From contig JAHFAE010000002.1 in the NCBI GenBank assembly GCA_023250675.1, positions 7,491-71,490 on the forward strand: 64,000 nt of DNA, given 5' to 3'. Each line of letters starts with the position of its first letter. Position 1 is the first letter of the stretch. Origin of the DNA: Oligoflexia bacterium (lineage in GTDB: Bacteria > Bdellovibrionota > Bdellovibrionia > JABDDW01). Under the pieces are notes generated by a model. The model was not told the origin of the DNA, did no database searches, and saw only the letters and a program-made list of their open reading frames with translations. Positions 3,875-21,147 of this stretch are shown one piece after another. Made by a program: the position numbers and the translations under genes.

Positions 3875-5227
3875 TTAGTTGAGGCTGGTCCCTTTTATTA
3901 CTTCAACACTATTGGCAATATCCCAAAGATAAGTCTGATATAGATCGCGAATAATACTTGGTCGGGTGGTAAAGAGCATAGTCTCAATGTGTTTATCCCA
4001 TGAATTTGGCGAGGCATTGTAGGTTCCTGCTCCTCCCTCACCGATGTAAATGGAGGGCTCCTGGCCGATTTTTAGAGCCTCCGAAGTCTCTCGTCGCAAA
4101 AGTAAAAAGGCTTTTGCATGCATGGGACCTTTGGGGCCAGAATACTCATAAAGATGGGCCGGATTGTTTGATGAGAGAGTGAGAAGGGGGCCATAGGACT
4201 GCCTTGCTTCACGATACAATTTATTGGCAATGACCCGTCTTGTGAGGGGTTCAAAAATAAAAAACAGCTGTTTGACTAAATTTTCTTTTGAATTAGAAAG
4301 AATCGTAATCTTAACTCCTCGTTTTGCAGCACCTCGCAATGCTTTCAAATGGGGTGGTTGAACTCTAAAAGAAAAAGATTGCCAATATATTTGATCTCCT
4401 GCTTTCGCACTATCGATGAGCTGGGCAATCTTATCATTTATTGGTGTTTGCCCATTTCTTAACCAAGGGGCCTGCAAGTAAAATTCGTCGTTAAAATCTT
4501 GGGGTACTTGAGAATAGTCATATATTTTTTTTGCAGTTCCAGTGCACTTTGTGATTTTTTTTAATGTGTCAAAGACCCAATAAAATTCTTGGGAAACTTT
4601 TTGAGCTATGGGCCCAGAAACGTAGATGTCCGTATCTCTCCACGATTGAACATGTTTTGATTTACCAAGCATCCAGTTATAACCGCCAGTAAAAACATGC
4701 CAACCATCAACAACCATTACTTTTGCATGACTTAATTTTTCTAAATTAATGGTCCATATGGCTTTTAATGATTTTTTGGCAAATTCGAAGAAATAAGGAG
4801 GTGTACCAAAAAAACGAATATCCACCCCGGCTTTTATCATGCGATGAATTTCGGCACGGGTGGTGGGAGGATTACCCCAATAATCAGTAAATACCTTTAC
4901 TTCAATACCTGCTCGGTGTTTTTCGATTAATATATCGGCAAGACTTTTACCTATTTCGTCGTGGGCGTACCATGCGTCAGGTTTAATGGTAAAAGTTGAA
5001 ATGAGAATGGAGTATTTGGCGTGTTTCAAAACTTCAAATTTATGCTTAAACGTTTCGTCAGCCGAAGTGTAAATGGCCGCATTTGAGGTAAGCTGAGTCC
5101 CCTCTATTCTCACGGCGGAGCCTGTAACATTCAAATTTTCTCGGCAATCGGACCCCGAAGAAAAGGCCGTTTCTCCATGGGACTGGAGAAAGAGCACACT
5201 TAACAAGACTTGAACTAAACTTTTCAT
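3875..5227 (-). CDS. Secreted phospholipase D family protein (HKD superfamily). The first HKD motif is intact; the second is divergent.
   Basis: Signal peptide MKSLVQVLLSVLFLQSHG. HAKVMVVDGWHVFTGGYN matches HxKxxxxDxxxxxxGGxN. Second copy reads MHAKAFLLL...GEGGAGTYN. Confidence 0.65.
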   Translation of the reverse strand: MKSLVQVLLSVLFLQSHGETAFSSGSDCRENLNVTGSAVRIEGTQLTSNAAIYTSADETFKHKFEVLKHAKYSILISTFTIKPDAWYAHDEIGKSLADILIEKHRAGIEVKVFTDYWGNPPTTRAEIHRMIKAGVDIRFFGTPPYFFEFAKKSLKAIWTINLEKLSHAKVMVVDGWHVFTGGYNWMLGKSKHVQSWRDTDIYVSGPIAQKVSQEFYWVFDTLKKITKCTGTAKKIYDYSQVPQDFNDEFYLQAPWLRNGQTPINDKIAQLIDSAKAGDQIYWQSFSFRVQPPHLKALRGAAKRGVKITILSNSKENLVKQLFFIFEPLTRRVIANKLYREARQSYGPLLTLSSNNPAHLYEYSGPKGPMHAKAFLLLRRETSEALKIGQEPSIYIGEGGAGTYNASPNSWDKHIETMLFTTRPSIIRDLYQTYLWDIANSVEVIKGTSLN

Positions 5228-5302
5228 GAATACCCTCTATTTTATGCTTCAAGCCATCTTCATATTGAAACCAAAGTCTATGCGTGTTCCAATATTTAAA
5301 GC

Positions 5303-6268
5303 ATGCATTCAATACAATTCAAAAAGAGCCTGGCGCTGGTATTAGTCGTTGTTGCTTTTACCTATGCAACGGCATTGCAAAATGATTTTGTCAATTTTGA
5401 TGATGAGCTTATACTCTTAGAGAATAAACCGGTCAAAGATTTTGATATTTATACCATTTTTACAAAGCCTTTGGCTGAAGACTTTGTCCCCCTTACACTT
5501 CTGACATTTGCCATTGAATATAAGTTCTTTGGACTAAAGCCCTTTATTTACCACCTGGATAACATTATTCTTCATCTACTCAATTGCATTTTGGTATTTT
5601 TTCTCATCATTGAGCTTTCAGGTGAAGATACGAGAATGAGTTTCATTTCAAGCTTGCTCTTTGGGATTCATCCCCTTCATGTAGAATCGGTTAACTGGGT
5701 GGCCGAGAGAAAAGATGTTTTATCCTGTTTTTTCTACCTTTTAAGCTTATTGGTCTATTTGAGGTATTCGAAAACTAAGAAAGTCAGTTTTTATTGGGGT
5801 GCTTTCATTTTTGGAGCAATGGCCATTCTAGCTAAATCTTTTGCCCTGACTCTACCCTTTGTTTTCTTACTTATTGACTATTACCAAGGCGTTAAAATTG
5901 AACTAAAAATAATAATAGAAAAAATTCCTCTTTTTATCGTGTCTTTTTTGAGTATTTTGATTGCTTGGCCTCTTTTGCATGTGATGAGTAACACAGAGAG
6001 CGCAATTTCTATTCAAAATATTATATACGTTGTACCCGCTTTTTGTTTTTACATCAGTCGGTCCGTATTGCCCGTTGGGCTCAGTGTTCTCTACGAAACC
6101 GGGGCCACTCGAATAGGTTTTCTAGCCTATGTCATAACGGGATTGGTAATTTGGGGAATAAATGAATTTGTAAAAACTCATCAGTCTCGAAAAAACCTTA
6201 TCATTTTTGGCTTGGGCTTTTTTCTCATATCTGGTCTCCCTGCATGTCAATTTATCAGAATAAAATGA
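5303..6268 (+). CDS. N-terminal (membrane, DUF1736/GT-C-like) fragment of a TMTC-like O-mannosyltransferase-family protein, terminated by an in-frame TGA. Probably a pseudogene fragment.
   Basis: FVNFDDE...HPLHVESVNWVAERKDVLSCFFYLLSL matches the DUF1736 region of TMTC-like proteins. Same reading frame as the 6335..7006 ORF. The conserved ADRYFYVPSVG motif is encoded between the TGA and the next Met. Confidence 0.55.
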   Translation: MHSIQFKKSLALVLVVVAFTYATALQNDFVNFDDELILLENKPVKDFDIYTIFTKPLAEDFVPLTLLTFAIEYKFFGLKPFIYHLDNIILHLLNCILVFFLIIELSGEDTRMSFISSLLFGIHPLHVESVNWVAERKDVLSCFFYLLSLLVYLRYSKTKKVSFYWGAFIFGAMAILAKSFALTLPFVFLLIDYYQGVKIELKIIIEKIPLFIVSFLSILIAWPLLHVMSNTESAISIQNIIYVVPAFCFYISRSVLPVGLSVLYETGATRIGFLAYVITGLVIWGINEFVKTHQSRKNLIIFGLGFFLISGLPACQFIRIK

Positions 6269-6334
6269 CTTTTCTCTTATGCCGACCGGTATTTTTATGT
6301 TCCCAGTGTAGGACTTCTCCTTTGTTATGGGGTC

Positions 6335-7006
6335 ATGCTTCGCGATTTTTCAAATAAATTATTTAAGCCTTTACTTGTCTTAGTATCTCTATTTTTCGTG
6401 GTACTCAGTGTTGAACGAGTTAGCATTTGGCGAAATACGGGAACGCTATGGGCCGATGTGGTTTCGAAATACCCCACAAGCTCTTATGCGCAGAGAAATT
6501 TGGGAACTTACCTGCATAAGACAGGCAACATGACAGAAGCAAGAGTTCACCTTGAAACGGCCTTAAGACTCAAACCCGATATTCCTGATGCTCATTACAA
6601 CTTAGGTGTAATTTGGATGGACCAAGGTGATTTTGACAAAGCTCTTGAGGAGTTTGATTTAGCCACTGGCTATAAACCAGAATTTGTAGAACCCTTAGCA
6701 ACTTCAGCTTTTATTTATTCTAAAAAAGGCGATCTTGAAAAATCTATTGAGCTCTATAAAAAGGCGCTTATTTGGGATCCTCAAGGGGGATATCTGCATT
6801 TAAATTTAGCCATCGTCTATAACATGAAGGGTGAAAAAGACTTAGCTCTAAATGAATGTTTGCAGGCTATTAAATTAGAATCAAAGTTAGTGAAGGCCCA
6901 TGAAATGCTTGGTCAAATCTACAAAGAATTCGGGAGACAAGCTGACGCTGATCAAGAGTTCATTGTCGCCGATAATTTAGTCAAAGAGGGTAGGGGGATC
7001 CGTTGA
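6335..7006 (+). CDS. C-terminal TPR-repeat fragment of the same TMTC-like gene (in frame with 5303..6268).
   Basis: TPR-like repeats (AHYNLGVIWMDQGDFDKALEEF..., GYLHLNLAIVYNMKGEKDLAL...). Frame continuity with the upstream ORF across a single TGA at 6266-6268. Confidence 0.55.
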   Translation: MLRDFSNKLFKPLLVLVSLFFVVLSVERVSIWRNTGTLWADVVSKYPTSSYAQRNLGTYLHKTGNMTEARVHLETALRLKPDIPDAHYNLGVIWMDQGDFDKALEEFDLATGYKPEFVEPLATSAFIYSKKGDLEKSIELYKKALIWDPQGGYLHLNLAIVYNMKGEKDLALNECLQAIKLESKLVKAHEMLGQIYKEFGRQADADQEFIVADNLVKEGRGIR

Positions 7007-8211
7007 AGCAATTATTGAAAGCTCCAGTTATTGTGGCAGCACTTGGTTATTTCGTCGACATCTATGATTTGCTTTTATTTAACATTGTTCGCGTGCCGAG
7101 CCTTCAATCCATCGGTCTTCACGGTCAAGAATTAAAGATGGGACTTTATCTTAATAACACTCAAATGACGGGGATGATGATAGGCGGAGTTATGTGGGGA
7201 ATCCTCGGAGACAAGAGGGGTAGGCTCTCTGTACTCTTCGGATCTATATTTATTTATTCTGCAGCAAATCTTGCAAATGCTTACGTGACCACATTTCAAC
7301 AGTATGCTTTTCTAAGGTTTGTGGCTGGTCTTGGTTTGGCGGGGGAACTAGGTGCAGGAATAACTCTTGTTTCAGAAATAATTCCAAAACATATGCGAGG
7401 TCTAGGTACCATGTTCGTGGCTACAGTTGGCGTGTCAGGCGCTGTAGTGGCAGCTTTGCTGGCTGAAGTTTTCACATGGCGCACTTGCTATATTATTGGT
7501 GGAGTGCTGGGGCTACTTCTCTTGTTATTACGGATAGGAGTGAGCGAGTCTGGGATGTTTGATAAATTAAAATCCAAAAAAATAAAAAGAGGAAATTTCT
7601 TTCAGCTCTTTATCAGGGCAGACCGACGTCTCCGCTATTTTTGTTGTATCCTCATCGGAATTCCCATTTGGTATATTATCGGGATTCTCGTGGCCTATGC
7701 CCCCGAGTTCAGTAATGCCATCGGTGTCGTTGGAAACATTACTTCTTCCCGGGCCATCATGTTTTGTTACTCAGGCCTTATATTGGGAGACTTTTCTAGC
7801 GGGTATTTGAGCCAGTTATTAGAAAGTCGCAGAAAATCTGTGGCATGGTACTTAGTTATTTCATCGATATTTGTCTTTTGTTATCTCTTCATGCCTATTA
7901 AGTCTGAAAAATTATTTTATGGAGTCTGTTTTGGTTTAGGAATCGCAGCAGGCTATTGGGCAGTTCTGGTGACCATTGCTGTAGAACAATTTGGAACAGA
8001 CTTGCGCGCGACGGCGGGGACTACAGTTCCTAATTTTGTGAGAGGATCTGTAGTACCCATGAGTTTGGCGTTTCTAGCCTTAAAACCTTTTCTTGGATTG
8101 ATTTGGGCTGCAGCCGCCGTAGGAATTGTGGTGCTTTCTATCGCATCCATATCGTTGTTTGGACTCCAAGAAACCTTCGGGCGTGATTTAGATTTTACAG
8201 AAAATACTTAA
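7003..8211 (+). CDS. Major facilitator superfamily (MFS) transporter.
   Basis: 402 aa with 12 predicted TM helices and MFS-like loop motifs (GDKRGR). Start overlaps the upstream stop (ATGA-type coupling). Confidence 0.6.
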   Translation: MKQLLKAPVIVAALGYFVDIYDLLLFNIVRVPSLQSIGLHGQELKMGLYLNNTQMTGMMIGGVMWGILGDKRGRLSVLFGSIFIYSAANLANAYVTTFQQYAFLRFVAGLGLAGELGAGITLVSEIIPKHMRGLGTMFVATVGVSGAVVAALLAEVFTWRTCYIIGGVLGLLLLLLRIGVSESGMFDKLKSKKIKRGNFFQLFIRADRRLRYFCCILIGIPIWYIIGILVAYAPEFSNAIGVVGNITSSRAIMFCYSGLILGDFSSGYLSQLLESRRKSVAWYLVISSIFVFCYLFMPIKSEKLFYGVCFGLGIAAGYWAVLVTIAVEQFGTDLRATAGTTVPNFVRGSVVPMSLAFLALKPFLGLIWAAAAVGIVVLSIASISLFGLQETFGRDLDFTENT

Positions 8212-10873: not shown

Positions 10874-11527
10874 ATGACAAACTATTTTGAGACAAGAATG
10901 GCTCCCCACGTGGCAAGGGATGCTGTTTGGAATCACATCACTCGTTTCTTAGAACCCTATTGGGAGTTAAATTCTAAAAGTCATGTTTTAGAACTTGGAA
11001 CGGGCTACGGTGCTTGGATTAAGTCTATCAAGGCAAATCAAAGAGAAGCTTTGGATTCTTATCCAGAACTTCACCAATTATTTCAAAAAAATGGAATAAA
11101 AGATGTGGCAGCACATGTGGGTGATTGCACGGATCTAGGCCGATGGAAAAGTGAAACATTAGATTTAGTTCTTGCCAGTAATTTGCTTGAACATCTTGAC
11201 CATGATGAGTTAAATTCTTGCATCAAAGAAATTTTTAGAATCTTAAAGCCCGGTGGACAACTTTGTCTGGTACAGCCCAACTTCGCTCTTTGTCCTAAAG
11301 AATATTTTGATGACTATACCCATAAAACTGTCTTTACCCATGTGAGTTTAAGTGATTTTGTGTCAGCCCATGGTTTTCAAGTCATTAAATTGTGGAAGAG
11401 GTTTTTGCCCCTTACTTTAAAGTCAGCCGGATCTCGGTTAACATTTTTAGTACCGTTTTATCTTCGAAGTCCCATTAAACCATTGGCGGGGCAAATGTGC
11501 CTCTTGGCTCAACGAAGAGACCATTAG
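10874..11527 (+). CDS. Class I SAM-dependent methyltransferase.
   Basis: Motif I LELGTGYGAW and the post-I LKPGG motif. Confidence 0.6.
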   Translation: MTNYFETRMAPHVARDAVWNHITRFLEPYWELNSKSHVLELGTGYGAWIKSIKANQREALDSYPELHQLFQKNGIKDVAAHVGDCTDLGRWKSETLDLVLASNLLEHLDHDELNSCIKEIFRILKPGGQLCLVQPNFALCPKEYFDDYTHKTVFTHVSLSDFVSAHGFQVIKLWKRFLPLTLKSAGSRLTFLVPFYLRSPIKPLAGQMCLLAQRRDH

Positions 11528-13221
11528 TGGCAGTACTCTCGGTCATTGCGGTCTATATTATTCTTTGTGTTTTGCAGTGGCATCGCCTTCCTATTCAAGA
11601 TGAGATTTTTTTTCATCGAGCTGCTTTCAAATGGGCCGTTGGTGGACCTCAGGCCGACGGGCTTTGGCACACACCTTTTTATTTAGAGGGCCTTAGAATT
11701 TGGCAAAAGCTTTTTGGCATCGCCGACCCAGGACGCCAAGGAAGTGTATTTATTCTTAGATCGTTTGGCGTATTTACCGGTTTATTGACCGCGTTCTTAT
11801 TTTTAAAAGGTGCAAAAAGAAAAGAAGGATTTCTGAGCTCTTACCCAGCAATAGTTTTAGCGCTCTTGTTATTAAATCCTTATTTTATTCAGTGCTCCTT
11901 ACTTTTAGATATCGACAATACTCTTATGATTCCGGCACTTGTTTTGTGGGTTTTGGCCGTATTGAAGTGGGACGATGCTAAAAATGGAAGCTGGAGTCAG
12001 ACCGTCGTCATAGCCTTTATTTCAGCTTTTGCGCTCATGGTAAAAGAGCTAACGCCGCTTATCTTAATACCAACTTGGATTTGTTATAGTTTTCTTCGGC
12101 CTTGGAGAAAACCTGCTGAGTCTTCATTCACACATATCATTCAATCTATTATTGGAATTATTTTGGGACTCTCTTTATTTGCATTAGTCTTGATTATTTG
12201 GACTCAAGCTCATCATATGAGTTGGCGTGAACCATTGGAATTAACATTGGGAAAGTCCAAAGGTAAGATCGGTCAGTATACCCCTTGGGACGTTCTTGGA
12301 ATTGTTCGGTGGATTTTTCTTAGTTACCTACCTCTTGTTTGGCTTCAAATTCCAACCCTGTTTTTTTTGACAAAGATGGCTCTAGAAAAAATTTCAGCTC
12401 ATAAATTTTTTTCTATCCCTCTTCCCTTCTTGTTCGCCTTGGCCGTTTATCTTTGCTATAGCTGGCTTATCCAAGGCTCGTTTTATTTTGCCAAGTACTC
12501 AGCAGTTGTTTGGCCTATGCTAGTCTTGGATTTTTCTATGGTGATCCCGTTGAATCTAAAAAAAGCCACTGAATGTTTAAATGAGTTAAAGAATTCAAAA
12601 AAATTCATTCTTGGTTTTCTTTTTGTTTGGCTTTTTGGTATCTGTTTTTTCAATTGTTTTGAACCCCTTTACATTATCGAAATGAGGCAAGATCCAAATC
12701 TTAATAAATTGGGGTGGCACTTTGTTTCAATAGCGTTGCCTATTTTTCTTATTTTAATGGGCGTCAAAATTATAAAGTATCAAGAAAAGGGGATCCAGAA
12801 TGCCGTTGTGGTTTTCGGGATCATTGTCACTTTTTTAGGACATTCTTTAAGCCAAGCCACCATGGATTCGCCGGGTTACCTGTTTGGCGAAGAGGGGCTC
12901 GCCCAAACCATTGAAGAGGTTAAGCAACTTAAAATCAAAATTTCAAGGGGCAAACCTGTATTGACAACGGCTGTTGATGTTCAATGGGCATTTCAAAACG
13001 ACGCTAAACTTTTGGTTTTTGAAAAAGAAGATTATTTAAAAATATTAGATCAATACGATATTTTAGTTTCAAGAACCTACGATAATTATTCAGTACGATA
13101 TAATCCACAGTGGCTAACGGACGTCAATTCTAGATTTAGATGTCACCAGGTTATAAATTTGCCTCGCGAGCGATTTGAATGGTGGTGGAAGCCATTAGCT
13201 AAATGTGAAGAAGGCCTTTAA
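11497..13221 (+). CDS. GT-C family polytopic membrane glycosyltransferase (ArnT/PMT-like). GTG start.
   Basis: 574 aa with many TM helices and an N-terminal region resembling 4-amino-arabinose / dolichyl-phosphate-mannose transferases. Gene neighbourhood includes a GT2 polyprenyl-phosphate sugar synthase. Confidence 0.5.
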   Translation: MPLGSTKRPLVAVLSVIAVYIILCVLQWHRLPIQDEIFFHRAAFKWAVGGPQADGLWHTPFYLEGLRIWQKLFGIADPGRQGSVFILRSFGVFTGLLTAFLFLKGAKRKEGFLSSYPAIVLALLLLNPYFIQCSLLLDIDNTLMIPALVLWVLAVLKWDDAKNGSWSQTVVIAFISAFALMVKELTPLILIPTWICYSFLRPWRKPAESSFTHIIQSIIGIILGLSLFALVLIIWTQAHHMSWREPLELTLGKSKGKIGQYTPWDVLGIVRWIFLSYLPLVWLQIPTLFFLTKMALEKISAHKFFSIPLPFLFALAVYLCYSWLIQGSFYFAKYSAVVWPMLVLDFSMVIPLNLKKATECLNELKNSKKFILGFLFVWLFGICFFNCFEPLYIIEMRQDPNLNKLGWHFVSIALPIFLILMGVKIIKYQEKGIQNAVVVFGIIVTFLGHSLSQATMDSPGYLFGEEGLAQTIEEVKQLKIKISRGKPVLTTAVDVQWAFQNDAKLLVFEKEDYLKILDQYDILVSRTYDNYSVRYNPQWLTDVNSRFRCHQVINLPRERFEWWWKPLAKCEEGL

Positions 13222-13373: not shown

Positions 13374-14144
13374 ATGTACCAGGGCAAAAAAGTTTCAGTT
13401 GTTATTTCTACCTATCAAGAAAAAAACTCTATTAAAAAATTCGTAAACGATTGTTTTTCAACCCAACTTGTGGACGAGGTCATTGTTGTTAACAATAACG
13501 CAGAAATAGGAACAAACGACGAAGTAAAGCAAACAAAAGCTACATTGATCCACGAATCCAAGCAGGGCTACGGTCATGGTTACCAAAGAGGGCTTCGAGA
13601 AGCTTCGGGGGATTTAATCATTATGACCGAAGCCGATGGAACATTCACTGCTCATGATTTTGAAAAACTTCTCGTATTCTCAAAAGACTTCCCCGTGATT
13701 TTTTGTACGCGCACGGCGACTCATGCCATTCACGATGGGGCAAATATGGGAATTTTCTTGAAATGGGGAAATTGGGCCGTGGCCAAAATGATTGAAGTTT
13801 TGTTTTGGACGACAGAATTAAGTGACGTGGGTTGTACCACAAGGCTTTTACGTCGCGATGCTCTCAATAAGATTCAACCATTATTTAGTGTGGGAGATTC
13901 TTATTTCGGATTAGAAATGATTCTCCTCACCGTTTTGGCTCGAATCCCATTTGTAGAACTTCCCATTCATTATTTGCCTCGCGTAGGAGTGAGTGCTGTG
14001 ACAGGTTATTTCCATAAGACTTTTATTCTGGGAATGACGATGATCTACTACACGCTAAAAACCAGAATAAATATTCCACTGAAGAAAAAGGTCACCTCAC
14101 TTGAGGTAGGCGACCTCATTAAAGCTACTGCGGCTATAAGATAG
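13374..14144 (+). CDS. Family 2 glycosyltransferase, polyprenol-phosphate sugar synthase (DPM1/ArnC-like).
   Basis: N-terminal VSVVISTYQE motif and DxD-like TEADG. 256 aa with C-terminal TM helices. Confidence 0.6.
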   Translation: MYQGKKVSVVISTYQEKNSIKKFVNDCFSTQLVDEVIVVNNNAEIGTNDEVKQTKATLIHESKQGYGHGYQRGLREASGDLIIMTEADGTFTAHDFEKLLVFSKDFPVIFCTRTATHAIHDGANMGIFLKWGNWAVAKMIEVLFWTTELSDVGCTTRLLRRDALNKIQPLFSVGDSYFGLEMILLTVLARIPFVELPIHYLPRVGVSAVTGYFHKTFILGMTMIYYTLKTRINIPLKKKVTSLEVGDLIKATAAIR

Positions 14145-14194: not shown

Positions 14195-14707
14195 TTAATT
14201 AATGAGGGTTTTGATATCTTGAATTACTTCTTCAACATGGGTGGTCGGATCAACACTTTCATAGACTCGTGCAATTTTACCTTGGGCATCGATAAGTGCA
14301 CTCCGGCGCATTAGAATACCTGTGAGCGGAATTTCTGGTATACCATAAGCTTTCGAAATTGAACCATCGTCAACCAATAAATCAAAGGGCAGCTTGTGGT
14401 TCTGAATAAAAGCTCGGTGGCTTTTCTCATCTTGTTTTGAAATCCCAAAAACCACGGCACCAAGGTCTTTTAATTTTGAAAACTGATCCCGAAAGCTGCA
14501 AGCTTCTTTAGTACATCCTGGTGTTTCATCTTTGGGGTAAAAGAACAAAACTACGGGCTTTCCCCTAAAGTCTTTCAAATTAACCATTTTGCCACTTTGA
14601 TTTTTAGCAGAAAAATCTGGTGCGATTTGCCCCTTAGACAGCGCTACAAGAAAAAACGAAGAAAACATTGTGAGAGTTCCAACAAGAAATCGTTTCATTG
14701 CTGGCAA
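14195..14707 (-). CDS. bcp: Secreted thiol peroxidase of the Bcp/AhpC-TSA peroxiredoxin family.
   Basis: FYPKDETPGCTKEACSFRD peroxiredoxin active-site motif. N-terminal signal peptide. Confidence 0.7.
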   Translation of the reverse strand: MPAMKRFLVGTLTMFSSFFLVALSKGQIAPDFSAKNQSGKMVNLKDFRGKPVVLFFYPKDETPGCTKEACSFRDQFSKLKDLGAVVFGISKQDEKSHRAFIQNHKLPFDLLVDDGSISKAYGIPEIPLTGILMRRSALIDAQGKIARVYESVDPTTHVEEVIQDIKTLIN

Positions 14708-14874
14708 TTTACAACGTCAAATCCCTTTCAGTCAAAAGTAAACACCTCTCGACGCTACGCATTTGAACTGTAGACATGCGTATACACTAAGCGTAAATCC
14801 TAAAACAAATTTGGTTGCACCGGTGACTTAGTATAGGCATCGTATATTTAGTAAAACGATCCATCGGAGGCGCC

Positions 14875-15696
14875 ATGAGACCATTACTGCTTTTGACTTT
14901 GGGGATTTTTGGTTCGTTAACACTTTTTGCAAACGAACTCACTCAAACTTGTTCTGACAAAGAAGTTTATTCGGATAAGTATAATTACTGCAACGTCATT
15001 TATCCTGGTGTTCGAGATTTAGCCGGCCGCTATTGCATTAATAGTTTTGGTGTCGTTCATGGTGGATACATTGTTGACAACAGATGTTTTTACTCTACCG
15101 ACGGTGCTTACCAAGGAATGCGAGAGACTTACGGGTGTTCTTTTCCGAGCCCCGTCACTATCGGTGCTTGCGAGATTTTTTATCCTTCTCAGCGAGATCT
15201 CACGGGTCACTTTTGCGCCAACAGTTATGGGGTTGGTTACGAAGGTGTCATCACAGATAATTCCTGCTTCCAAGCGATGGATGTGGCAATCCGCCGCATG
15301 CAAACATCTAATTTCTGTCAAAACAATGGTGGAGGAGGGGGGGCGGGGCAATATTACTATTGTCATCTGATGACTCCCGGTGTTCGCGATAGAGCCGGTC
15401 GCTATTGTGATGGTGGATATGGTTATGAGTACGAGGGATACATTGCGGATAATTCCTGTTACCCGACCACCAATAGAGCTTACGCAGAGATGTCACACCA
15501 GACCATGTGCGAAAATCGCCCTCCGTATTTTATGGGAAGATGCGGAGTCTTTAATCCAGATGAAAGAGACAGGCAAGGACACTACTGTAACAATTCATAT
15601 GGAATCGACGTAAACGGCTATATCCTACACGATCTTTGTTATGAAACTCTTGGCCAACTGAGATTGGTTATGGAGCAAAGTCCCTCTTGTCATTAG
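14875..15696 (+). CDS. Secreted cysteine-rich protein of unknown function, made of four ~55-aa internal repeats.
   Basis: Signal peptide, then four repeats: YPGVRDLAGRYCINSFGVVHGGYIVDNRCF / YPSQRDLTGHFCANSYGVGYEGVITDNSCF / TPGVRDRAGRYCDGGYGYEYEGYIADNSCY / NPDERDRQGHYCNNSYGIDVNGYILHDLCY. Confidence 0.55.
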   Translation: MRPLLLLTLGIFGSLTLFANELTQTCSDKEVYSDKYNYCNVIYPGVRDLAGRYCINSFGVVHGGYIVDNRCFYSTDGAYQGMRETYGCSFPSPVTIGACEIFYPSQRDLTGHFCANSYGVGYEGVITDNSCFQAMDVAIRRMQTSNFCQNNGGGGGAGQYYYCHLMTPGVRDRAGRYCDGGYGYEYEGYIADNSCYPTTNRAYAEMSHQTMCENRPPYFMGRCGVFNPDERDRQGHYCNNSYGIDVNGYILHDLCYETLGQLRLVMEQSPSCH

Positions 15697-16349
15697 TTTC
15701 GAATTGCTTGAATTTGCTTTTCTAGAAGCTGGCGATCAAAGAAATGTTCGTGTTCAATTTGTTTGACCAACGAATCGGTGACTTCGAGAGTTTGGCTTGT
15801 TGCTTTTCCTGCAAATAGTCGCGCTCCAAAAATTCCAGGATCTGTAAATAGTTGAGTAATGAGAAGAGTGTTACCTTTATGTGGGGTGAAAATCGATCGT
15901 CCCCAAGATTTCTTCATTCTCTTGGCTCTAACTAACGACCATTCAAGATCAAATTGATTTCGAGCCTCATTAGTTGACCAGTCGTAACGAAGTGTAAATT
16001 CCTCATCGGGCAGAAATAAAACACTGAGAAGGTAGTCAACCTCAGTTTGCGAGCCGGGTCCTGATTTAGAAATTTTTGCCGATTTAAATTCATGGGAGTA
16101 CTGAGGTTTTAATTCGTAGTCTAGGGATACGGCGGCACATTCTTCTGGAGTGGCTTTTATAAGTTGAAAAATCGTAATTTGCGGCCAAGGGGCATCGGCA
16201 ATTTTTTCTGTGGCGTAGACTTGCTCGCCAGAAAGAACTTTCATTCGTTGCTCTGAACTTAATTGATCAAAAATCCGCGGATCAATGCTCTGAGCTTTGG
16301 TCACAGAAAAAGAAAAGAGAAACCAAAAGAAAAGAAAAAATTTTGTCAT
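15693..16349 (-). CDS. Secreted hypothetical protein.
   Basis: 218 aa with signal peptide MTKFFLFFWFLFSFSVTKAQS. Confidence 0.45.
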   Translation of the reverse strand: MTKFFLFFWFLFSFSVTKAQSIDPRIFDQLSSEQRMKVLSGEQVYATEKIADAPWPQITIFQLIKATPEECAAVSLDYELKPQYSHEFKSAKISKSGPGSQTEVDYLLSVLFLPDEEFTLRYDWSTNEARNQFDLEWSLVRAKRMKKSWGRSIFTPHKGNTLLITQLFTDPGIFGARLFAGKATSQTLEVTDSLVKQIEHEHFFDRQLLEKQIQAIRN

Positions 16350-16428: not shown

Positions 16429-16656
16429 CTACGCCCTGCGATGGTGGCGCCTCACACGACGGTCATGGCGAATCTCTCGTCGATCGTGCCGGCGCTTTCG
16501 CCGGTCTTTTCTCAATTCGTGACGATCTTTCTTTAGATTTTGCCGATCTTGCTCGATCTGCTGTTCGTCGTTGACGATTCCCCCTGCTTGCCCCAATGCC
16601 ACAGAACAACTTAAAATCAGAATCGAAAGTAAAGCTGTAGTCATGAACTTTGCCAT
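16429..16656 (-). CDS. Small secreted, extremely basic (Arg/His/Asp-rich tail) protein. Low-complexity, so the call is tentative.
   Basis: 75 aa: signal peptide, then RHELRKDRRKRRHDRREIRHDRRVRRHHRRA. An overlapping alternative-frame ORF (16463..16663) exists. Confidence 0.3.
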   Translation of the reverse strand: MAKFMTTALLSILILSCSVALGQAGGIVNDEQQIEQDRQNLKKDRHELRKDRRKRRHDRREIRHDRRVRRHHRRA

Positions 16657-16890: not shown

Positions 16891-17493
16891 ATGAATTCAA
16901 AGAAAATAAATAAGAAGGTTGTAGTGCCAAGTGTTCTTTTGGCTGCGTTTGTTGCTGTACCTTTAGTCATAAATGGCTTGAGAAGCATGAGCGATGAACC
17001 AAAAGATTCTGTCCGCTCTCCCGCAAGTCGTTGGATCGAAGAAATTAGATCAGGATCCGTAAATTTAGAACGAAATCTGGCCGTTCAGGTGGCGGAACTT
17101 AAACAAAGGACCTTAGCAAGTATTGGACGACCTGCTGATCCCCTTGAAAAATTAAGATTCGGAGTCCTTGAAGGAAAATATTCTTTAACAATGGCCGGCG
17201 ATTTTATTAAAGAGATTTCATTTATAGATAATCCCAATACTGAAGGCCGCCCTGCCACCATCGCCGATCGCAAACAATTCATTAAAGATTTCGGTCAATT
17301 TTTTGAATTAGGAAGTCGTTTAGAAAGAATCAGCACCAATATCAAGGGCAGTAAGATCATTGAAAACTATCTTGTAAAGACAAGTTCGGGGCAGGACACG
17401 ATTTTAAGTTTTGTCCTAGACGATATGGATCGCCTCTTTGCAATCCATTCAGAAAAGTCCCAACATCAGCTCACTCGAAATCAAATCAACTAA
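16891..17493 (+). CDS. Secreted hypothetical protein.
   Basis: 200 aa with an N-terminal hydrophobic signal/anchor (VVVPSVLLAAFVAVPLVING). Confidence 0.45.
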   Translation: MNSKKINKKVVVPSVLLAAFVAVPLVINGLRSMSDEPKDSVRSPASRWIEEIRSGSVNLERNLAVQVAELKQRTLASIGRPADPLEKLRFGVLEGKYSLTMAGDFIKEISFIDNPNTEGRPATIADRKQFIKDFGQFFELGSRLERISTNIKGSKIIENYLVKTSSGQDTILSFVLDDMDRLFAIHSEKSQHQLTRNQIN

Positions 17494-20544: not shown

Positions 20545-21147
20545 TCAAGTGGCAAATCGCCAAAAGCCTTTGCTTAATCCCAGTAATTCAGCTTTTAGCT
20601 CATCACCGGGTTTAACAGGACCTACTCCCGACGGTGTGCCGGTAAGAATTATATCCCCTGGTTCTAACGGAAAAGTGCTCTCTAAATACTTAACGAGTTG
20701 GGAAACTTTGAAAATCATATCTTTTGTGAAACCGTGTTGAACTACTTTCTCATTAAGAAAAACCTTAATTTCAAGGTTAGAAAGGTCCACTCCTGATGCA
20801 GATACCCAATTTCCAATTCCGCAACTTTGCTTAAATCCCTTAGCGAGAGCCCAGGGACCTTTTGAGTCTTGGGCTTCTTTTTGTATGTCGCGGGCGGTGA
20901 GATCGTTGCCAATGGCAATTTCTGAAATTTCTAACTCCCGCCCAAGTTTTACCGCCAGCTCCCCTTCGTAGTGCACATTTTTTGAAAATGGGGGAAGGTG
21001 AACTGTGCCGCCGCTCAACACAATACTTGAGTGGGGTTTAAAAAACACCATAGGGGATTCGCTTGCTGCTGGCGGGGCTTGGTTGCCCAATTCCTTGGCG
21101 TGGTCGGCGTAATTGCGCCCAATTCCATAAATCATAACATGATCCAA
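20545..21147 (-). CDS. Fumarylacetoacetate hydrolase (FAH) family protein.
   Basis: 200 aa with IYGIGRNYADHAKE...YEGELAVKLGRE, characteristic of FAH-family hydratases/isomerases. Confidence 0.65.
   Translation of the reverse strand: MDHVMIYGIGRNYADHAKELGNQAPPAASESPMVFFKPHSSIVLSGGTVHLPPFSKNVHYEGELAVKLGRELEISEIAIGNDLTARDIQKEAQDSKGPWALAKGFKQSCGIGNWVSASGVDLSNLEIKVFLNEKVVQHGFTKDMIFKVSQLVKYLESTFPLEPGDIILTGTPSGVGPVKPGDELKAELLGLSKGFWRFAT

Follow-up and report, generated by a model that had tools for sequence, protein, structure and literature searches.

We describe here a gene for a cysteine-rich repeat protein found in a 64,000-nucleotide stretch of DNA from an Oligoflexia bacterium (assembly GCA_023250675.1, contig JAHFAE010000002.1, forward-strand positions 7,491 to 71,490; hereafter the window, in whose coordinates all gene positions below are given unless a contig is named), together with the family of small domains that its repeats appear to define. 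The gene lies on the forward strand at 14875-15696 as an intact open reading frame (ORF) of 273 amino acids, which starts with ATG and ends with a TAG stop, and a Shine-Dalgarno sequence, GGAGG, can be read from the sequence at 14866-14870, 4 nt 5' of the ATG. The opposite strand of the same interval contains many stops. The N-terminus of the product (MRPLLLLTLGIFGSLTLFA, followed by NE) has the features typical of a Sec signal peptide and lacks a lipobox; the signal peptide itself spans amino acids 1-20 (MRPLLLLTLGIFGSLTLFAN, 14875-14934), and cleavage is expected after LFA. It is followed by a short spacer, amino acids 21-37 (14935-14985), in which the alignment with P0002, the sole close homologue of the protein, shows an odd and non-conserved cysteine, Cys26; the other 16 of the 17 cysteines of the protein are within the repeats. 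The mature protein is rich in tyrosine (~11%) and glycine (~13%) and has just two lysines. The composition of the gene is native to the window (GC content 0.45 vs 0.41), and horizontal transfer is not indicated by it. A public NCBI/ENA protein, P0001, is identical to the product. The gene is real and encodes an exported protein.

The remainder of the protein consists of four repeats of ~55 amino acids each, arranged in the order A-B-A-B. Repeat 1 (A-type, amino acids 38-97, 14986-15165) contains C39, C54, C71 and C88 and includes a Pro-rich linker, SFPSPVTIGA; it is delineated by hmmsearch (92 bits), by alignment and by an AlphaFold2 (AF2) model with a predicted local distance difference test score (pLDDT) of 97. 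Repeat 2 (B-type, amino acids 98-149, 15166-15321; C99, C114, C131 and C148) is supported by hmmsearch, alignment, AF2 and BLASTP, while Repeat 3 (A-type, amino acids 162-221, 15358-15537; C163, C178, C195 and C212; with the linker ENRPPYFMGR) and Repeat 4 (B-type, amino acids 222-273, 15538-15693; C223, C238, C255 and C272) are supported by hmmsearch, alignment and BLASTP, all on the forward strand. The repeats score 82-94 bits each, and the whole protein totals 251 bits when compared with a profile built from the 139 family repeats whose scores allowed profile alignment (see below). The cysteine spacing is identical in all four, C-x14-C-x16-C-x16-C (intervals of 15, 17 and 17 residues), as is the presence of the motif P-x-x-R-D-x-x-G-x-[YF]-C. 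The two halves of the protein align without gaps over 114 amino acids at 39% identity (BLASTP E 9e-27) and Repeat 1 aligns with Repeat 2 at E 1e-15, so that the homology of the repeats is far beyond chance. The alternation is seen in Repeat 1 being nearest to Repeat 3 and Repeat 2 to Repeat 4, and in the Pro-rich linker of ten residues that follows Repeats 1 and 3 alike. The protein ends one residue past the fourth cysteine of Repeat 4, with no residues after the last repeat.

The two A-B pairs are separated by a Gly-rich hinge, NNGGGGGAGQYY, at amino acids 150-161 (15322-15357), which is disordered in the full-length AF2 model (pLDDT <50). In P0002 the corresponding segment is 5 residues shorter and is not Gly-rich, and a Gly hinge of a similar kind follows the B repeat of another relative, P0013. 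The latter protein consists of an A-B didomain, the hinge and a C-terminal domain of ~110 amino acids of unrecognised type. At the DNA level the hinge is a G-rich tract, ggtggaggagggggggcggggc, which could be prone to slippage and to variation in hinge length.

The family proved difficult to detect by word-indexed searches, which are nearly blind to it (2, 3 and 4 matches); in 5.8 billion clusters such a search returned only the window protein itself and P0002, a metagenomic protein that is 45% identical to it and keeps 16 of the 16 repeat cysteines. We therefore rely on an exhaustive hidden Markov model search, in which a profile of eight repeats was compared with 1.84 billion proteins at E<=1e-3. 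This search found 62 representatives, 16 of them at E<=1e-30; two, P0056 and P0060, were low-complexity artefacts and were discarded, leaving a family set of 61 sequences including the window protein, i.e. ~60 related clusters. The set contains 145 repeats in all, with one, two, three and four repeats in 9, 28, 22 and 2 members, respectively, the window protein and P0002 being the only ones with four. Of the 61 members, 57 begin with a hydrophobic signal region, and the remaining four are fragments truncated at the N-terminus. The commonest layout is a signal peptide, a low-complexity spacer and the repeats, with the stop at the fourth cysteine; in P0013, P0035, P0036, P0047, P0059, P0063 and P0040 the repeats are fused to varied and unrelated N- or C-terminal regions. 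On one metagenomic contig, L090, two tandem genes at 5068-5835 and 6001-6711, one P0003-like and the other encoding P0009, carry three repeats each, which points to a local duplication within the family.

Among 30 members that were looked up, five could be assigned to a named organism, and all five belong to Bdellovibrionota: one Pseudobdellovibrionaceae metagenome-assembled genome (MAG), two Bdellovibrionales MAGs, Bacteriovorax stolpii (WP_102244793.1 / UniProt A0A2K9NVG0) and Bacteriovorax sp. HI3. All are annotated as 'hypothetical protein'. The family is apparently restricted to Bdellovibrionota, to judge from these names. A hand-made degenerate DNA pattern, which was specific in that every local match fell inside a family gene, had no match in ~1.16 Mb of 79 related loci (described below) or in viral contigs; in the JGI metagenome collection it matched six stretches, five of which lie in family genes encoding four distinct and already known proteins, while the sixth, L097, contains no repeat match and is attributed to chance. 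Scans of genome contigs with an alignment of the repeat protein and of metagenomes with an alignment of a subgroup found nothing, nor did tblastn searches of plasmids and phages reveal a homologue. The four-cysteine repeat family is evidently a rare one.

Structure prediction gave a confident fold for the repeat. With the two-sequence alignment the full-length AF2 model has a pLDDT of 56, and a strand-strand-strand-helix arrangement is already seen in each repeat; for the two-repeat unit of Repeats 1 and 2, with a 72-row alignment, the pLDDT rises to 97 with a predicted template modelling score (pTM) of 0.87, and both repeats adopt the same fold. In the predicted repeat, a short strand runs from the first cysteine (C1) into a 15-residue loop (P7, D11, G14, R15, Y16) that ends at C2; this is followed by a beta-hairpin whose second strand ends with C3, a 10-residue helix of the form S/T-x-x-D/E-A...M and a short helical turn that carries C4, the whole topology spanning ~44-50 residues. 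The high pTM suggests that the A and B repeats are held in a fixed arrangement. The framework of the family, P7, D11, G14-R15-[YF]16, [YFW]21-G-[VI]-x-[YF]25-x-G27, [YF]35, A41 and M45, is shared by the window repeats, and in the 139 aligned repeats these conserved positions are interspersed with variable ones beside C2 and C3.

The way in which cysteines are lost across the family bears on their pairing. Among the same 139 repeats, 112 have all four cysteines, 11 have lost C1 and C4 together and two have lost C2 and C3 together; other pairs are never lost jointly, save in one N-terminally truncated fragment (P0033, which keeps C3 and C4). Because of this paired loss, we predict two independent disulfides per repeat, C1-C4 and C2-C3, in place of a single four-cysteine metal site, an assignment that is well supported but not proven. 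In ten further repeats C4 is missing while C1 is kept; in at least three of these C4 is shifted and was missed by the alignment, and the remaining ones, which weigh against the proposed connectivity, would leave C1 unpaired. In three members (P0015, P0016 and P0052) an extra CxxC (CTNC, CTYC or CSNC) stands right after the signal peptide and the last repeat lacks C4; the cysteine count of these proteins is odd, and the additional pair perhaps provides an alternative partner for C1 of the last repeat.

No known family accounts for the repeat. With the whole protein and isolated repeats as queries, Pfam gave no match beyond a sub-threshold one to Herpes_ORF28 (E 0.0037, 17 bits vs a cutoff of 40), which we judged to be due to chance, and no match was found in NCBIfam release 20, PHROGs or PADLOC. 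The PDB sequences contained nothing similar to either the single sequence or the family profile, a Pfam scan of all 61 members found no family over the repeat, and a search of viral folds in BFVD gave nothing significant (best E 0.02, TM score 0.30). Literature searches found no description of such a four-cysteine repeat family. We regard the repeat as a new family of small domains, which matches neither a described family nor a solved structure. The initial annotation had read the gene as one for an exported protein of four homologous Cys-rich repeats of an unrecognised type, with a Gly-rich hinge after the second and probably two disulfides in each, and had suggested structure prediction and a look at the distribution among predators; its points on export, the repeats and the hinge are borne out by the results above, two disulfides per repeat fit the paired loss of cysteines, restriction to predatory bacteria can provisionally be affirmed from the five named members, and its concern that the frame might be conserved in no relative is answered by the ~60 related clusters.

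By analogy, the protein resembles small disulfide-rich repeat modules of the extracytoplasmic space, a broad class, and it was compared with several known kinds of domain. Kunitz/BPTI domains (PF00014) are likewise extracytoplasmic modules of ~50-58 amino acids, often in tandem and with a C-terminal helix, in which one disulfide links the two termini and another anchors a long N-terminal loop at the end of a beta-hairpin, as is predicted here; their six-cysteine signature is absent from the repeat, and there is no match to the family model or the fold. The Kazal signature (PF00050/PF07648), also of six cysteines, is absent too, with no Pfam match, and among the fold matches listed the sole Kazal structure was rhodniin (1toc_R), with a TM score of 0.17 and E 2.2. 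The small carbohydrate-binding modules (CBMs) such as CBM1, hevein/CBM18 and peritrophin-A/CBM14 are similarly small, Cys-stabilised, Gly- and aromatic-rich beta modules, found as tandem copies or joined to other extracellular domains; they differ from the repeat in the number and spacing of their cysteines and by the helix present in the latter, and no Pfam match to these or other small CBMs or lectins was found in any of the 61 members. The Excalibur-type calcium-binding region (PF05901) is likewise rejected: instead of its DxDxDGxxCE motif the loop of the repeat reads P-G-x-R-D-x-x-G-R-Y-C with a single conserved Asp, and there is no Pfam match. A Cys4 zinc-ribbon or Fe-S site does not agree with the spacing of 14/16/16, the lack of a CxxC within the repeats or the pairwise loss of the cysteines. 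Finally, the major vault protein also has tandem beta-rich repeats of ~55 amino acids; of its Pfam families (Vault and Vault_2-4), Vault_2 appeared on P0013 alone at E 0.088 (13.7 bits vs a cutoff of 23.6), and major vault protein chains were found by Foldseek at E 2.6-8, TM 0.22-0.24 and a root-mean-square deviation of ~9 Å, all at chance level.

The neighbourhood of the gene was examined in the window and in relatives. Adjacent to it and divergent from it is a peroxiredoxin gene on the reverse strand (14195-14707; AhpC/TSA, E 4e-37), which probably starts at the ATG at 14698 rather than at the TTG at 14707 and whose product, as the initial annotation had said, has a hydrophobic, signal-like N-terminus. 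On the other side, a reverse-strand gene at 15693-16349 for an exported protein of 218 amino acids meets the repeat gene tail-to-tail with a 4-nt overlap; this protein has no match in Pfam, NCBIfam or PHROGs. Further on, a 75-amino-acid ORF on the reverse strand (16429-16656; GC 0.51 vs 0.41 for the window) has a signal resembling that of lipoproteins, LILSC, and a tail extremely rich in Arg, RRKRRHDRREIRHDRRVRRHHRRA, with just weak, sub-threshold NCBIfam matches. It is followed by a forward-strand gene at 16891-17493 for a protein of 200 amino acids that begins with a membrane anchor or signal and matches no family. For the comparison with relatives we used the 79 best loci by the window PutA, nearly all of which are titled Bdellovibrionales or Bdellovibrionota; the window PutA is 69% identical to those of 'Oligoflexia bacterium' MAGs. 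In these loci the block consisting of the 16891 gene, putA and the genes at 20545 and 21132 is syntenic, and the 200-amino-acid protein lies beside PutA in 19 of these 79 Bdellovibrionota loci; on this positional basis it may be described as a conserved protein of uncharacterised role tied to proline catabolism.

The repeat gene and the genes for the 218- and 75-amino-acid proteins, on the other hand, are absent from all 79 loci, and because of this the patch of small secreted proteins is, as far as gene content tells, lineage-specific and variable, with no conserved unit. The cluster of small secreted proteins named in the initial annotation is accordingly not supported as a conserved unit, and the ten other contexts in which family genes were inspected share no neighbour. 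Upstream, a forward-strand gene for a multi-pass membrane protein of 574 amino acids (11497-13221) and one for a protein of 256 amino acids (13374-14144), provisionally labelled a family-2 glycosyltransferase with the label unchecked against family libraries, are also without homologues in the 79 loci; the patch peculiar to this lineage may therefore reach from ~11.5 kb to 16.7 kb. No conserved operon partner emerged from a search of 11 family contexts (the window and the ten others), and the repeat gene usually stands alone.

What such a protein might do can be proposed only tentatively, and our preferred reading, which we hold with low to moderate confidence, is that of a binding array which is non-enzymatic, multivalent and situated outside the cytoplasm. 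It is suggested by the variable number of repeats, the accessory fusions, the lack of any enzyme signature (no catalytic family was matched in Pfam, the scan of all 61 members included, or in NCBIfam) and the lack of an operon partner, and fusion to varied unrelated regions is typical of binding modules. According to this proposal, the protein would be exported by Sec with cleavage of its signal peptide, and each of the four ~50-amino-acid modules would be oxidised to two disulfides, of which C1-C4 would staple the N- and C-termini of the module together and C2-C3 would pin the conserved 15-residue loop (P-G-x-R-D-x-x-G-R-Y-C) onto strand 3. Each module would fold as a strand, a long loop, a beta-hairpin and a helix, and the modules would pair through the Pro-rich linker into two rigid A-B didomains with the flexible Gly hinge between them. 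Located in the periplasm or outside the cell, the resulting array could be a scaffold for multivalent binding, its binding surface formed by the loop pinned by C2-C3 together with the variable residues next to these two cysteines. The likeliest ligand would be a repetitive component of the envelope, either the bacterium's own or that of its prey, e.g. a glycan or a polymer of the peptidoglycan type, and we hold a glycan ligand to be less probable than the binding scaffold as such. The disulfide chemistry, the location beyond the inner membrane, the binding function and the ligand are all inferred.

Several observations weigh against a binding array. No lectin, CBM or toxin family was matched, although the initial annotation had considered a lectin-like or toxin-like module, and no likeness to lectins, CBMs or adhesins is seen by sequence or fold. 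The conserved aromatic residues may simply form the core of a small domain, and the near-invariant Asp of the loop could have another role, such as binding of a metal ion or a purely structural one.

The main rival to the binding array, in our view rather unlikely, is that the protein is a multi-headed protease inhibitor, whose pinned loops would be reactive loops of the canonical type and which would shield the periplasm of the predator from its many secreted serine proteases or block the proteases of the prey. Tandem modules of ~50 amino acids, rich in disulfides and with a disulfide-tied exposed loop, are the classic Kunitz/Kazal design, and the predicted C1-C4 and C2-C3 bonds recall the 5-55 and 14-38 disulfides of BPTI. 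Positions 18-20, immediately after C2, are variable as reactive-site residues are, and protease genes are found near some members (Trypsin in L080, S9 beside P0012 and S8 in L088); these protease neighbours, however, are not conserved. Moreover, no inhibitor family appeared in Pfam even at E<=1, nor by fold, and the near-invariant Asp and conserved Arg within the loop are atypical of hypervariable reactive loops.

A further alternative, which we regard as improbable, is a structural or matrix component of the envelope, e.g. a cross-linked Tyr/Gly/Cys-rich protein, maybe tied to peroxide chemistry. The high Tyr and Gly and low Lys content of the mature protein would suit such a role; other members are Lys-rich, however, and the positions of the tyrosines suit the core of a domain. 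In 3 of the 11 contexts the repeat gene has a peroxidase-type gene no more than two genes away (AhpC/TSA in the window, AhpC-TSA near P0022 and OsmC in B. stolpii, L087), an association that is suggestive at best, as the redox category was picked after the data had been seen. The other eight contexts have no peroxidase-type gene, the peroxiredoxin and repeat genes of the window are not co-oriented, and OsmC is normally cytoplasmic.

The idea of a periplasmic metal binder, for zinc or a similar metal, in which each repeat would use its four cysteines as ligands, seems to us very improbable. In four independent contigs, L080-L083 (e.g. at L080 3364-6771), P0013 lies 76 nt downstream of znuA-znuC-znuB, which encode a zinc/manganese ATP-binding cassette transporter, a position that would agree with metal binding, as would a Zip-family gene three genes from P0006 and the label 'uncharacterized Fe-S cluster protein YjdI' that one source gives to P0013. 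Metal genes are absent from the other nine contexts, however, and the strict loss of cysteines as C1+C4 or C2+C3, with the other pair left intact, fits two independent disulfides and not one Cys4 site; in addition, the repeats contain neither CxxC knuckles nor a conserved His, and the protein would be exported to an oxidising compartment. That the ORF is no functional gene, i.e. a chance frame or a decaying lineage-specific remnant, might be thought of in view of its absence from the 79 syntenic loci and its single close homologue in 5.8 billion clusters, but it is effectively refuted by the conservation of all 16 repeat cysteines at 45% identity in P0002, the ~60 related clusters of the same architecture and the predicted fold at pLDDT 97, to which the strong Shine-Dalgarno sequence and the intact frame of 273 amino acids may be added.

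When they attack prey and grow inside it, Bdellovibrionota secrete a large number of proteins, many of which are lineage-specific and of unrecognised function. A bolder version of the binding array, which we consider speculative and doubtful, would make the protein a predation tool specific to Bdellovibrionota: an array of disulfide-stapled mini-domains delivered to the prey envelope or periplasm, where it would recognise polymers of the prey wall or outer membrane or neutralise prey or predator hydrolases. The number of repeats and the variable residues around C2-C3 would then tune its specificity, and the paralogues and fusions, including one with a RING finger, would represent an evolving effector toolkit. 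The family is now defined by its repeat boundaries, the A-B didomain as its unit, the probable pairing of its cysteines, a fold predicted with confidence and ~60 members, and its occurrence in the cultivable Bacteriovorax stolpii makes it experimentally tractable. If it is indeed a module for prey recognition or self-protection, the known tools of these predators would gain a new small scaffold, and engineering might gain a compact one stabilised by disulfides; otherwise it is one more domain of unknown function.

The RING-finger fusion is found in P0040, which is encoded on a Logan contig of 1.5 kb and consists of a signal peptide, two repeats, the second without C2 and C3, and a C-terminal RING finger (PF13639, E 2.6e-8). 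Exported proteins of bacteria do not usually carry such a fusion, and the short length of the contig precludes taxonomic placement.
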